Origin: an uncultured Candidatus Rokubacteria bacterium
GTDB lineage: Bacteria > Methylomirabilota > Methylomirabilia > Rokubacteriales > DASRDR01
DNA length: 64,000 nt
Assembly: GCA_963805625.1 (NCBI GenBank)
Contig: CAWDVE010000019.1
Coordinates: forward strand, 96,001 to 160,000
Direction: 5' to 3'
Positions 57,159 to 64,000 of this stretch are shown in pieces (position 1 is the stretch's first letter; the number at the start of each line of letters is the position of its first letter). The notes beneath the pieces were generated by a model. That model saw only the letters and a program-made list of their open reading frames with translations, was not told the DNA's origin and did no database searches. Both the position numbers and the translations under genes were made by a program.

Positions 57159-57305
57159 TCACCTCGTCGGTTTCTTCGCATGCTTGAAGAACTGCACTTG
57201 TCGCTCCCGCTTCAGCGCCTCCGCGCGCGTCCGGTAGGGCCCGCCGAGATTGCGCGAGCCATCCTTCGAGTACAGCACGTAACCCTTGGCTGTCTTCTTG
57301 ATCAT
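57159..57305 (-). CDS. Small basic protein (48 aa), missing from the ORF track
   Basis: MIKKTAKGYVLYSKDGSRNLGGPYRTRAEALKRERQVQFFKHAKKPTR; GGAGG RBS. Confidence 0.7.
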   Translation of the reverse strand: MIKKTAKGYVLYSKDGSRNLGGPYRTRAEALKRERQVQFFKHAKKPTR

Positions 57306-57807
57306 GACTGCCTCCGTCGTCACCCTGGCCCTCGCGCGCCCTCGACATGGTAGAGGTGGCTGTCCCAGTCATCTCTTGGCACGTTGACGGTGTCAAGCTC
57401 CCGCGACTCGGCGCGTGGAACGCCGCGGGCTCCTCGATCTGCGGCGTGCGACCGTGAGACCTGTCCCCAGACTCCGTGACCACCTTGGTTGAGGGTCCGC
57501 GAACTCCTCACCGCCGGGTTCAGCATCTGACCCTGAGCCTTGTCCACCCCCCCGGGACCGAAGGGCGTCGAGATGCTGACCCCGGTTGGCGAGCAATCCG
57601 GCCGCACAGCGCCAGGAGTGGTAGCGGGTTGCCGCGGTGCTCCGACAGGCTGCGATGGACTCTGGCAAGGGCTAGGATCCCGAGAATCGGCGCGATGTCC
57701 GTGGGTCGCGGCCGCTCGGGCTTCCAGAGAGGCCACTTTCCTGCTAAATTTCTATTCCCTGGAGCGCTCGGACGGCCAGGAACGCTGCGGAGTTGCGTGA
57801 CGACATC

Positions 57808-58029
57808 ATGACGGGCAAGGCGATCCAGGACCTCGTCGGGCGGGTGATGATCGACCGGGAGTTTCTTGCCCAGCTCGCCCGCGATCCGGACGTCATCCTC
57901 GCCGGCTACGAGCTCACCGCCGAGGAGCGGGCCGTCATCATGCAGGCCCTCGGGCGCGGGGCGTACGTCTCGGAGGATGAGCGCGCGCACGCCCTCCAGA
58001 ACGCCCTGCTGAAGCGATGGGCCACCTGA
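57808..58029 (+). CDS. NHLP-clan (Os1348/Franean1_4349-like) leader-peptide protein
   Basis: AIQDLVGRVMIDREFLAQLARDPDVILAGYELTAEER fits the GR..D.EF..L..DP...L.GY.LT.EE pattern. Confidence 0.72.
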   Translation: MTGKAIQDLVGRVMIDREFLAQLARDPDVILAGYELTAEERAVIMQALGRGAYVSEDERAHALQNALLKRWAT

Positions 58030-58093
58030 TGCGCCACCAAGGCTCCCTGACGGACACGCGGCGTCCGCCGGGCAGGCGCGCGAGGCTGGCCTG

Positions 58094-58594
58094 ATGGAGC
58101 GCCTCCCCGAGATCGACTTTCTCCGCCAGGTGCCACTCTTCCAGGACGTCGAGGAGTCCGTCCTGCGCGAGCTCTGGTTCACCTTCCGCGAGCGGCGTCT
58201 CCGGAAGGGCGATGTGCTCTTCCGCACCGGGGATCCGGGCGAGGAGCTGTTCCTCATCAAGGAGGGCAGCATCGTCGTCTCGAAGCCCGTCACCGGGCGG
58301 ATCGAGCAGGTGCTCGCCCGGCTCGAGCCGGGCGAGGCGTTCGGGGAGATGAGCGTCTTCGGGGACGAGCGCCACCGGTCGGCCACCTGCCAGGCCGACA
58401 TGGACGCCGTGCTCTACAGCCTCGATCGCGACAGCCTGGGCCGCTTCATCGCCGGCAGCCCGGTGACCGCCGCCAAGTTCTTCCAGCACATGGCGCAGGT
58501 GGCCTTCCAGCGGCTCCGCGACTCGACCGACCTGGTCGCCGAGGTCACCCGCTGGGGGCTCGAGGCCACGGGCCTGGACGTCGAGCACAAGTAG
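58094..58594 (+). CDS. Stand-alone cyclic nucleotide-binding domain protein
   Basis: LFRTGDPGEELFLIKEG; phosphate-binding cassette FGEMSV...RSAT; no HTH. Confidence 0.88.
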   Translation: MERLPEIDFLRQVPLFQDVEESVLRELWFTFRERRLRKGDVLFRTGDPGEELFLIKEGSIVVSKPVTGRIEQVLARLEPGEAFGEMSVFGDERHRSATCQADMDAVLYSLDRDSLGRFIAGSPVTAAKFFQHMAQVAFQRLRDSTDLVAEVTRWGLEATGLDVEHK

Positions 58595-58607
58595 TCCCGC
58601 AATCCCC

Positions 58608-59861
58608 GTGAACGAGGCCGGGAAGAAGACGGTGCAAAGTCGGCCGAAGCGCGCCCGCCTCGAGCTGCTCGTGCGCCGGGCGGACGGGGACGGGTTCGAG
58701 GTCCGCGAGATCCCGAGCGCGGTCGCGTATCTGCAAAGCCGTCCCCAGCGCATCCCCGCCGCGGACTGGGAGATGGCCCGGCTGCCCTACGCGAGGCAGG
58801 GCGTCGTCACCTACGCTCTCAAGAACAGCCGCACCGAGCAGATCATCCAGATCACCGAGGCCGAGAAGTTCCTCTGGGAAGAGATGGACGGGCGAGTGTC
58901 GCTCCAGGAGATCGCCACCGCCTACCTCCTGCGCTACGGCTCCTTCGACTTCGAGATCATCCCGACGCTGATCGTGAAGCTCCTGCGGGCGGACCTCCTG
59001 ACCATGCGCCCGGTCTCCCGCCTCCGCGCCGTCCTCGCCCGCAACCGCCGCAACGCGGCCGCGCGCGCCATGGAAGGGACGCTCCACGCGCTCGAGCGGC
59101 TCACCGTCGCCAGCCGGCGGGCGCACGACGTCTTCGCGCGCGTGTACCGCTACGGCGGCTTCCTCCTCTTCTCGCCGTGGGCCCTGCTGGCGCTGATCCT
59201 CATGGTCGGCCTCGGCGGGTGGAGCGCCGTCCGGATCTGGGCGGAGCTCGGCGAGGTGACCCACGGGCTGGCCCAGCACCCGCTGATCGCCATCCTCCTC
59301 GTGAAGGTCGTCTTCTGGCTCACGGTCATCAACCACCAGGTCATCCATGCCCTCGCCTGCGTGCACTACCGCCGCCGGGTGCGCGAGTTCGGCTTCACGA
59401 TCCTCCACGGCTTCATCCCGACGTTCTACGCCGACGTCACCGACATCTTCATGGCGAGCCGTCGGGCCCGCATCGTCAACGCGGTGGCGGGGCCGCTATT
59501 CCACCTCTTCCTGGGCGCCTTCTGCTTCTGGATCGCGACCATGCTGTCGCCGGGGCTCTTCCAGGGCTTCCTCGCCGCCTCCGCCATCCTGCAGCTCCAG
59601 TCGTTCTTCATCAGCCTCTACCCGTTCTGCTTCCTCGAGATGGACGGCTACCACATCCTGGTGGAGTGGCTCGGCATCCCGACGCTCAACGACGATGCCG
59701 TCCGCTTCGTCCGGGAGTCGCTGTGGGCGCGCCTGCGGAGTCTCGACAGCTTCACCCGGCGCGAGGGGATTTACGTGGCGTACTTCGCGCTGTCGCTGGT
59801 GTCGGTGACGGGCTTCGTGCTGGCGACCGTGTGGCTCCTGGTCCGTGCCGGCACGTCATGA
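58608..59861 (+). CDS. RRE/PqqD-like domain fused to an M50-like intramembrane zinc-peptidase fold (HQxxH variant)
   Basis: YALKNSRT...FLWEEMDGRVSLQEI...LLRADLL (RRE); NHQVIHALAC, FYADVTD, AGP, PFCFLEMDGYHIL; multiple TM helices. Confidence 0.75.
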   Translation: MNEAGKKTVQSRPKRARLELLVRRADGDGFEVREIPSAVAYLQSRPQRIPAADWEMARLPYARQGVVTYALKNSRTEQIIQITEAEKFLWEEMDGRVSLQEIATAYLLRYGSFDFEIIPTLIVKLLRADLLTMRPVSRLRAVLARNRRNAAARAMEGTLHALERLTVASRRAHDVFARVYRYGGFLLFSPWALLALILMVGLGGWSAVRIWAELGEVTHGLAQHPLIAILLVKVVFWLTVINHQVIHALACVHYRRRVREFGFTILHGFIPTFYADVTDIFMASRRARIVNAVAGPLFHLFLGAFCFWIATMLSPGLFQGFLAASAILQLQSFFISLYPFCFLEMDGYHILVEWLGIPTLNDDAVRFVRESLWARLRSLDSFTRREGIYVAYFALSLVSVTGFVLATVWLLVRAGTS

Positions 59862-62072: not shown

Positions 62073-62179
62073 CGACACTGCCAGTTTATCTCACGCCGTG
62101 CCCGATCACCAGCATGTGCGGCGCGCCGACGATCTTCCGGACGGTCGTGCTCGTGGATTCAGGGACCGGACGCGGGGCC

Positions 62180-63288
62180 CTAGTCCAGCCAGTCCTCGCT
62201 CTTTGAGCTTCCGCGGCAGGTAGGTCTTGGTCAGGTAGCGGAAGTCCTTGTTGGCGAGCGCGTCGAGCTCGTACTTGAGGCCGCTCGCGAGCATCCGCTT
62301 GATCTCCTCCTGCCAGGGCTTCTTCTGGAACCAGCGGTACTTGAGCAGCTCCTTGGCCCGGCCGACGTCCTTGTCGTTGAGCTTGATGCCGACGTTGCGC
62401 GGCAGGCCGTAGGCGTCGGGATCGGCGCTGGAGAGGCCGATGAACTTGGCCTTGGGGATGGCCATGCGCTCGCTCTCGAACGCGAGGTTGATCGAGCCCT
62501 GCTTGACGACCGAGTAGATGTAGTAGCCCCAGGGGTCGTTGTCGACGAGGACGTACACGGGGATCTTGTAGTCCTCGTGCAGGCGGCGGGCCAGGCGGCG
62601 GACGCCGCGGGGCGGCTGGCCGTTGCCGGTCAGGAGCACGCAGTTGTACCGGCGCCAGAACTTGTCCTCCGACAGGCGGTTCCACTGGGTGCCCTTCTCG
62701 ACGAGCAGGACGAAGTCCGCCGTGCAGCGCCGGATCTCGATGTACTCGGGCTCGACGATGGAGGGCACCGAGTAGCCGCCCTTGCCCAGGCGCGCGCAGT
62801 CCACCCGGTCGCCGTCGTCGACCGAGGACGACCGGCCCCACGATGCTGCCGGCGTTCTCGGCGCGCACGTGGAGCTCCTCGCGCAGCGCCGCCAGCGCGA
62901 CCTCGAGGTCCTCGATCAGCGGGTCGGACTCGTTCTGGTCGTCGAAGGTGTTCTCGTGCGAGCCCTTCATCGTGTGCTTGGTGCGGTAGTAGATCTCGCG
63001 GAGCGAGGTCGTGAGGTTCGCCCGCTGCAGCTCGGCCAGGGCGTCGGCCACCAGCACCGTCTGCATGAACTTCTTGGCCATGCCCACGTTGAAGAACGTG
63101 CGCGCCTGCTTGCGCTTGCCCATCTCGATGATGCCGCGCTTCTCGTTGAAGTTGACGTTGGCGAGGCTGCGCACGGGGATCGACAGCGCGGGGTCCCGGC
63201 TCCGCTCGGCGGCGGTGATCACGATGTCGGCCACGCCGACCAGCTTCTTCTCGACCGGCCCGATCTTCTTCGGCGTCGCTCCGGCCAT
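62180..63288 (-). CDS. top6A: DNA topoisomerase VI subunit A (Spo11-like), two +1 frameshifts (~62822, ~62195)
   Basis: TSLREIYY (catalytic Tyr region), FDDQNESD, LVEKG (TOPRIM Glu), VDNDPWG (DxD), YELDAL. Confidence 0.88.
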
Positions 63289-63296
63289 GGCTCGCT

Positions 63297-64000
63297 CTAT
63301 CGCTTCCTGCGCTTGGTCGACGGAGCCGCGTCGCGCGTGTCGCCTGTCGCTTCGCGTCCGGTCGGCTTGGGCGCTTCGCGCTTGGCCGTCCTGGGCGCTC
63401 ACGCGCTGCCGCCCTGGCCCTGGCGGGCGGCTCCAGGCTCGCGACCTTGCCCTTCCGCCGCGCCGGCGCCGGCCGCTCGGATTCCGCCGCGCCCTCCGCG
63501 TCCGCCGCCGCGCCCGGTCGGCACCGGGCAGCACCGGCGCCTCCCCCTCGGGCCCGTCGGGCGTGACGATGATCGAGTGCGGCAGGCCCTCCGGGCCGCC
63601 TCCGTCGCGGCCCAGGATCTCGTCGGTCCGGCTCCCGCCGGTCCGCTTCATGGCGATCTTCTGGAGCTGGCTCTTGAGCTTCTCCTTGGGCGAGCTTGCC
63701 GCCCTTCAGCCGGGCGCAGGCCTCGACGACCTCCTCGATGTAGAGCTCGAAGATGTTGCGCCGGCGGAACTCGCTCTTGGCCCGCTCGCGCCGCCGCAGG
63801 AAGACGCCGAGCCGGCGCCCGCACTCCTGGAGCGCGAGCTTGATCTCCTTGCGGATCTCGTCGTAGTCGGCGATCGCTTCCTTGGACTCGCTGGTGAACG
63901 GCACCCAGACCGAGGCCATGTGGACGAAGATCACCATCGGGCCCGGCCGGCAGCGCGCCCCGGGACTGGGACACGCCGTAGTTCCGCCAGGCGGTCTCGA
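63297..64000 (-). CDS. top6B: DNA topoisomerase VI subunit B, C-terminal part (partial, frameshifted)
   Basis: WRNYGVSQ, VHMASVWVPFTSESKEAIA, EIKLALQECGRRL (transducer domain); runs off the window. Confidence 0.85.

Follow-up and report, generated by a model that had tools for sequence, protein, structure and literature searches.

The window analysed here is a stretch of 64,000 nucleotides from an uncultured Candidatus Rokubacteria bacterium and contains three closely spaced open reading frames, all on the plus strand, at 57808-58029, 58094-58594 and 58608-59861, with intergenic gaps of 64 and 13 nt. They encode a 73-aa small protein of the Os1348/NHLP clan, a stand-alone 166-aa cNMP-binding protein and a 417-aa RRE-M50 membrane protein that starts with GTG and is a predicted pseudoprotease. 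The co-orientation and close spacing had been noticed in an earlier sequence-only reading and agree with these coordinates. By tblastn, neither the membrane protein nor the small protein has a paralog in the genome, except for a 40-codon duplicate on an overlapping contig. A sigma-70 promoter or a terminator was not matched at the trio. Contigs from four RNA runs cover the three genes, one of them spanning 57777-58031 with 2 differences; the word shares of the RNA runs are small (0.05-0.09) and, without a DNA or silent-region control, no expression level follows. Indel-type breaks are found near the locus in the assembly, in the topoisomerase VI genes.

The small protein (57808-58029, plus strand) matches the Os1348/NHLP-clan model NF038399 over residues 4-45 with 39.8 bits (cut-off 40), and several of its orthologs exceed the cut-off, while PF14407 gives 26.9 bits (cut-off 48). 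It had been described as almost entirely an NHLP leader with a short tail. The clan assignment holds, but the leader match ends at residue 45, and the alignments indicate that residues 46-73 are a conserved tail of fixed length and no core peptide. Members of the family have about 69-74 aligned residues, conserved positions lie along the whole protein, and the C-terminal end R70-x-[AS]-T73 (58015-58026, plus strand) is fixed, with R70 in 79/79 and T73 in 77/79 aligned rows. Gly-Gly is absent from the protein of the window and not conserved in its family; the alignments contain neither a hypervariable core nor an ELExMEAP leader motif, and each trio locus has one small gene. In the accessible text on NHLP precursors, the conserved part ends at Gly-Gly and is followed by a hypervariable core (PMC2887384), and NHLP leaders are described as folded (PMC12537861, in part). 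Because of its fixed length, the missing Gly-Gly, the conservation throughout and the fixed end, the small protein is, as far as alignments can tell, not built like a RiPP precursor. Elsewhere in the same phylum, stronger NF038399 matches are often flanked by sigma-54-activator-like and efflux-like genes, and the weaker matches adjoin dioxygenase-like genes, as judged by eye from translations; hence this fold is often used without nearby RiPP enzymes. The dioxygenase-like neighbours are presumably LigA/LigB-like.

The cNMP-binding protein (58094-58594, plus strand) scores 75.5 bits with PF00027, above the cut-off, and its phosphate-binding cassette G84-E85...R95-S96-A97 (58343-58384, plus strand) is intact, as had been claimed from the sequence. 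The cassette, in the form G-E...R-[ST]-A, is found in 78/78 non-redundant orthologs and in 120/120 proteins of a second clade described below. PF00027 is the sole Pfam family in this protein at E up to 1, with no helix-turn-helix or other DNA-binding domain, and the CRP model reaches 37 bits against a cut-off of 266, which does not make it a CRP/FNR transcription factor. The protein ends in a family-specific motif, R153-W-G-L-E-A-T-G160 (58550-58573, plus strand), that is near-invariant in both clades (WGL in 117/120 second-clade proteins); WGL is missing from 7/8 fused cNMP relatives checked. This motif is a candidate docking element. The genome has 40 matches to class III nucleotide cyclases, so that a source of cyclic-nucleotide ligand in the host is plausible.

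The membrane protein (58608-59861, plus strand) is only weakly recognised by Pfam, with E 0.13 for PqqD and E 0.013 for M50, and its best NCBIfam match is the daptide peptidase model daptide_HExxH (NF041824) with 81 bits, well short of the cut-off of 300. An earlier structure model (17 rows, pLDDT 71.9) had no match with E of 0.001 or below, and neither of two Foldseek searches produced one. An AlphaFold model built from 113 rows has a pLDDT of 89.5. In this model, a predicted RRE/PqqD-like winged helix at residues about 40-136 (58725-59015, plus strand) has the three-strand, three-helix winged-helix fold of RREs, and residues 44-133 align with 6jx3_B (Z 9.7, rmsd 2.7, 82 aligned); 5v1u_A (Z 9.6) and 5sxy (Z 8.7) are further RRE matches, and the non-RRE winged helix 8hkr_B scores similarly (Z 9.6). 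The membrane part aligns with the site-2 proteases RseP (9j83_A, Z 9.0, rmsd 4.1, 164 aligned), SpoIVFB (8vjl_A, Z 8.5, rmsd 4.2, 160 aligned) and MjS2P (Z 7.9), with rmsd values of 4.1-4.2 for the three. Thus the proposed fusion of an RRE-like winged helix to an M50 domain, weak by Pfam, is borne out by structural alignment of the model. The motif H243-Q244-V-I-H247 (59334-59348, plus strand) carries Gln (CAG, 59337-59339) in place of the catalytic Glu, and D346 (59643-59645) in E344-M-D346 (59637-59645, plus strand) is the third putative zinc ligand; H243, H247 and D346 are invariant in the 113 aligned rows. The earlier description of kept His-His-Asp ligands next to a Gln codon was therefore correct. 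A predicted beta-hairpin (strands 260-266 and 270-276; 59385-59444, plus strand) with the conserved motif PTFY[AV]DVTD appears in the model where site-2 proteases have their membrane-reentrant loop for substrate binding.

The loss of the catalytic Glu extends far beyond the window. Gln244 is present in 120/120 close homolog protein clusters with 49-97% identity over the full length. Among 207 loci with a strong match, some of them retrieved twice, HQ was read at 204, HT and HV at one each, and the remaining locus, at first unparsed, also proved to be HQ; after redundancy removal at 88% identity, CAG is found at 76/78 loci, with ACG (Thr) and GTG (Val) at one each. Both exceptional copies lie in one genome (G024), and a search with one of them identified the second clade, which is 34-40% (about 37%) identical to the window protein; its few members with a name come from Deltaproteobacteria, Binatia or Methylomirabilota. 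At the position of the Glu, the 120 second-clade proteins have Val (114), Met (3), Thr (2) or Ile (1) and never Glu, and H243, H247 and D346 are kept in 120/120. The hairpin motif and E344 are retained in both clades. The position of the oxyanion Asn is Ser, Cys or Ala in the Gln clade and Asn in 119/120 of the Val clade. A hydrophobic residue such as Val cannot serve as general base. For SpoIVFB, the exchange E44Q is described in the available parts of the sources as catalytically inactive, with substrate complexes still formed (PMC9042235; PMC11486902). On these two grounds, sequence comparison and analogy make the loss of normal M50 catalysis well supported. The sequence-only reading had itself raised the concern that homologs might all be HExxH and had proposed a survey of HQxxH; close homologs and the second clade alike turned out to lack the Glu. 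A sequencing error behind the Gln, or decay of the locus to a remnant, has next to no probability. The indel-type breaks nearby would suit this, but Gln is fixed across the order, the frames are open in nearly all matches, the homologs span 49-97% full-length identity, and an error at 59337 is ruled out by CAG at 76/78 non-redundant loci and Gln in all 120 close homologs.

Titles of close-relative records are mostly Rokubacteria or Methylomirabilota. Among 200 genomes of the phylum, orthologs with strong matches occur in 122/144 Rokubacteriales genomes (own genome excluded) and in 0/55 genomes of other orders, counted from best E-values with one weak-paralog genome left out and one contig-edge fragment kept, the surveyed genomes being incomplete and kin not independent. 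Within the order, 7/15, 114/127, 1/1 and 0/1 genomes of the individual families are positive; in the family of the window genome, its own genus alone is positive (7/9, other genera 0/6). Where the flank measures 1100 bp or more, both partners lie upstream of the membrane gene in 175/176 loci, and the single exception has an insertion with all three genes kept. In G024 the order is cNMP-binding protein, small protein, membrane protein, the trio being kept despite the altered gene order. We conclude that the three genes are a conserved unit in Rokubacteriales; the fear that they would not be syntenic elsewhere has not come true. For the second clade there is indirect evidence that membrane and cNMP genes are co-located too, as 27 contig sizes are common to matches of the second-clade M50 protein and of the G024 cNMP protein, compared with 0-4 in 50 shifted controls.

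Common neighbours of the trio are an amidase (73/100 loci, in a cluster that may include paralogs), a 447-aa protein of unknown function (66/100) and a lipoprotein (44/100). In the window genome the usual amidase, 447-aa and lipoprotein genes sit on other contigs, so the trio has moved as a block. The convergent 447-aa neighbour was considered as the missing active protease and rejected, since it has no conserved His motif and no Pfam or Atlas match. A Pfam scan (E up to 1e-12) of 247/297 neighbour-cluster representatives from 100 loci, with short proteins and the cluster of the trio itself removed, detected neither YcaO nor radical SAM, lanthipeptide or ThiF families, consistent with the earlier statement that no modifying enzyme is adjacent. 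The feared outcome that homologous loci always include modifying enzymes was thus not seen in the neighbours scanned. The scanned neighbours also held no effector gene conserved with the trio, and the daptide set of DUF-RRE, dehydrogenase, aminotransferase and methyltransferase is not conserved among them. An ABC-type permease (MacB/FtsX) recurs in a cluster spanning 21 loci but does not accompany the trio constantly. Single methyltransferase or dehydrogenase genes lie near the trio in 1-7 loci each. The DUF-RRE model NF041823 matched neither the window genome nor the control genomes. Elsewhere in the window genome there are one YcaO and seven PqqD matches. Some of the surveyed genomes also have RRE-M50-HlyD proteins with HExxH, encoded next to genes for short peptides; these are more distant relatives.

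Where the Glu-less proteins come from is indicated by a profile search of 1.84 billion representatives, from which the best 150 matches were taken. Together with the query (151 rows), 131 rows have His at the first ligand position, followed by Glu in 108, Gln in 19 and Val in 4. Within these best 150 matches, the closest relatives that keep the Glu are RRE-M50 proteins of the stand-alone type, about 384-409 aa long, which have no fused cNMP domains and share a two-residue insertion before the Asp ligand. Beyond them lie 42 of the best 150 matches with fused cNMP domains, mostly in tandem; 41 of these are HExxH proteins and one (P0366) has an independent HQxxH. Because so many distant relatives, mostly with an intact motif, carry fused cNMP domains, sequence comparison indicates that the nucleotide link to RRE-M50 is old. 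At one Rokubacteriales locus (L219), a 69-aa Os1348 gene directly precedes a cNMP-cNMP-RRE-M50 fusion with HEGAH. The pairing of Os1348 with an intact fusion rests on this one locus, as no second pair was found in 20 further regions, and a plasmid search for cNMP-RRE-M50 fusions gave no record covering 80% of the query. In the trees, Gln clade and Val clade are supported with 100/100 each and are nested among Glu-bearing proteins, in a polytomy with the HExxH proteins P0246 and P0252 (91/93); FastTree on 150 rows, with 42 partial rows dropped, gave a similar result. The polytomy is compatible with one loss of the Glu or two. GAG is one base away from both CAG and GTG, which would fit two losses.

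We propose, with moderate confidence and from sequence, structure models and analogy, that the membrane protein is an M50 pseudoprotease that serves as a non-cutting dock for the small protein under the control of cAMP or cGMP. The small helical protein would be held at the inner (cytoplasmic) face of the membrane, its folded N-terminal part bound to the RRE and its R-x-A-T end entering the retained zinc cleft. By analogy with SpoIVFB E44Q, no proteolysis would follow. The fused forms suggest that the cNMP protein would dock on the membrane protein. Binding of cAMP or cGMP would then alter how the small protein is held or released, and once free it may act on a target encoded elsewhere. A non-proteolytic, cNMP-linked function had already been suggested and is still the best reading, strengthened by the second Glu-less clade and by the cNMP fusions of intact relatives. 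A receptor or sensor had been imagined as well; an outward-facing receptor seems unlikely because no signal peptide is evident from the sequence of either soluble partner.

The complex was modelled with three chains and zinc. The small protein scored 0.55, while no control exceeded 0.00, the one with a replaced membrane protein included. In the calibration of the tool, 116/157 solved pairs and 2/215 mismatched pairs attained the mark (18 of the solved pairs and both mismatches at 0.60 or under), and the job lies outside that calibration, as it used its own alignments and included zinc. Runs agreed in at least 74% of contacts with a partner pLDDT of at least 68. This gives weak support for binding of the small protein, with no interface returned, and suggests that its position hinges on the membrane protein rather than on the cNMP protein by itself; the score may reflect likeness to solved RRE-leader complexes. 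Covariation between the proteins, in 79 paired rows with an effective number of 51, was uninformative, the top pairs being clade markers, for example position 378.

Other explanations have to be weighed against the non-cutting dock. The membrane protein could still be a zinc enzyme, that is a cyclic-nucleotide-gated protease or hydrolase with a relocated or borrowed base, provided by E344, by E/D299 in the Val clade or by the C-terminal carboxylate of the small protein. The strict retention of the zinc ligands would fit catalysis as well, neither clade has lost the hairpin motif or E344, the end of the small protein is fixed in length and sequence, and the M50 relatives TglG and TmoG engage peptide C-termini according to the accessible part of the source (PMC10885120). 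However, neither residue tracks the loss of the Glu: E344 is common in HExxH relatives (LELDGY) and also present at L219, which rules it out as a clade-specific compensating base, and position 299 is His in 118/120 Gln-clade proteins. We regard a borrowed base as unlikely, and the same holds, at a somewhat lower rank, for a permanent three-subunit membrane complex that acts as cyclic-nucleotide-regulated scaffold, gate or zinc site and never releases the small protein. The one-to-one gene dosage and the conservation along the whole small protein would agree with a permanent subunit, and the NF038399 matches adjoining dioxygenase-like genes argue that the fold can be structural. Against it, no pore or transport feature was found, and known relatives use RRE and cleft to handle substrates.

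Less probable still is a satellite of a RiPP pathway with its enzymes encoded elsewhere, as offered in the sequence-only reading, in which the small protein would be a precursor whose C-terminal Thr may be modified, as it is in daptides. The NHLP-clan match, the RRE-M50 architecture with daptide_HExxH as best NCBIfam match (81 bits), the conserved Thr (77/79) and the YcaO and PqqD matches elsewhere in the genome can be cited for it. But Gly-Gly and hypervariable core, the hallmarks of NHLP precursors in the available text (PMC2887384), are missing; ELExMEAP is absent and each locus has a single small gene, where daptide clusters have 2.3 precursors each according to the part of the source at hand (10.1101/2023.03.08.531785); the peptidase lacks its catalytic residue; and the scanned neighbours (247/297 cluster representatives, 100 loci) include no maturase family. 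The satellite idea is thus not supported, and the daptide analogy, correct as to the conserved Thr, fails for leader motif, multiple precursors and enzymes.

The dock can be extended to an evolutionary reading that we put forward only tentatively, and as rather doubtful. A cNMP-linked RRE-M50 protease would have given rise, on one or two occasions, to a site-2 pseudoprotease that is gated by cyclic nucleotide and for which the earlier substrate is now a permanent ligand; this pseudoprotease would be a bacterial second-messenger effector. In the boldest form, the C-terminal carboxylate of the ligand may sit in the zinc site and lock it or supply the missing base; in the latter case a protease may be switched on in trans by cAMP. 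Site-2 pseudoproteases appear in the literature searched from plants only (EGY3), and the trio would provide a bacterial one, fixed across most of an abundant soil order and joined by a second clade that has Val. If true, parts of peptide maturation (RRE, NHLP fold and M50) would have been reused for signalling. Rokubacteria have many nucleotide cyclases, with 40 matches in this genome, for which the trio is a candidate effector, and the intact RRE-M50-cNMP fusions point to cyclic-nucleotide-gated intramembrane proteolysis. RRE-based genome mining calls for some caution, since trio-type loci are not RiPP clusters.

We found no description of the trio module in the full-text literature searched, which covered few subscription papers. 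Its parts belong to known families; by the comparisons made here, the module fits neither the active M50 proteases nor the daptide clusters nor the NHLP precursors. Closest in architecture is the daptide peptidase MpaP/DapP (NF041824; 10.1101/2023.03.08.531785), in the accessible text likewise an RRE N-terminal to an intramembrane site-2 protease, and daptide clusters likewise have a neighbouring small ORF that ends in Thr. In contrast, the trio protein reaches 81 bits against the cut-off of 300, is without catalytic Glu, ELExMEAP and daptide enzymes, and has a cNMP partner. NHLP precursors share the NHLP-clan N-terminal domain, as far as the available text goes (PMC2887384, PMC12537861), whereas the small protein has no Gly-Gly, variable core, exporter or maturase. 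SpoIVFB, RseP and MjS2P have the same fold, His-His-Asp site and reentrant hairpin, and SpoIVFB also has a cytoplasmic regulatory (CBS) domain (PMC11486902, PMC9042235, in part); compared with SpoIVFB, the Gln or Val that occurs naturally is at least as drastic as the inactivating exchange E44Q made in the laboratory, and the trio adds an RRE and a separate cNMP protein. The RRE-M50-cNMP fusions and the stand-alone HExxH RRE-M50 proteins, for which the literature searched contained no description, have the same RRE-M50 core as the trio protein. In the fusions, however, the Glu is kept and the cNMP domains are usually in tandem and fused, while in the trio the Glu is lost and the cNMP domain is separate. 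Catalytically dead homologs of membrane proteases that are kept for a regulatory role are familiar from the iRhoms. Within the site-2 family, EGY3 is likewise a dead homolog kept for a regulatory role and is reported from plants only in the accessible part of the source (PMC9355673); the trio protein differs in being bacterial, in keeping its zinc ligands and in having its own small partner and nucleotide sensor.

The surroundings of the trio, formed by the Os1348 (NHLP-clan), cNMP-binding and RRE-M50 genes, include a 447-aa protein that is encoded convergently with it in 66 of 100 loci (L134:6261-7601; ortholog of the source genome at G000:C9:9053-10333). This protein has no match in Pfam or Atlas and carries a conserved Y-x-GPYPTE-x-LF motif. 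Divergent from the trio lies a basic ORF of 48-54 aa (window 57159-57305, minus strand), again without a Pfam match. Further along, the topoisomerase VI genes are broken by frameshifts (window 62086-64000). Contig G000:C28 of the same genome overlaps with the end of the trio M50 gene and carries unbroken topoisomerase VI copies, and the split versus unbroken copies suggest either indel errors from long-read sequencing or the presence of a second strain.

The source genome has a second Os1348 gene, in the region G000:C16:5403-7741, with a sigma-54-activator-like gene upstream. Downstream of it are encoded a cNMP-like protein in which the G-E...R cassette is missing and then a membrane protein that, judged by eye, resembles an AI-2E-type permease. 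Full-length Os1348 proteins of the phylum (L221-L250) end in a conserved DDRICRL-like stretch and are often encoded between GAF/sigma-54-activator-like genes and RND-efflux-like operons, with no RiPP enzymes evident within 1.5 kb.

RRE-M50 domains also occur fused to further domains. RRE-M50(HEFAH)-HlyD fusions (L055:6741-9596, L058:256-3361, L220:7042-9880) adjoin a short ORF, or two of them, whose products have repetitive tails and a motif, ELE-x-RIAP, that resembles a leader; these are candidate peptides that may be unmodified or exported. Tandem cNMP domains fused to HExxH RRE-M50 form a large family (P0295, P0298, P0301, P0306, P0332, P0383, P0386), some with FHA or redoxin domains; the middle ~400 aa of the 1030-1170-aa fusions have no Pfam match. 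The RRE-M50-cNMP-cNMP fusion P0366 (1171 aa) carries HQAAH, apparently an independent loss of the Glu, far from the Gln-bearing Rokubacteria clade. In the Rokubacteriales locus L219 (4460-6789; G184:C101), a cNMP-cNMP-RRE-M50 fusion with intact HEGAH directly follows the gene of a 69-aa Os1348 protein ending in Gly-Gly-Gly-Cys, with a divergent LGT-family gene upstream and GAF-sigma54, TPR-CHAT and CHASE2 genes downstream. This pair is a candidate cyclic-nucleotide-gated intramembrane protease encoded with its putative substrate, the Os1348 protein.
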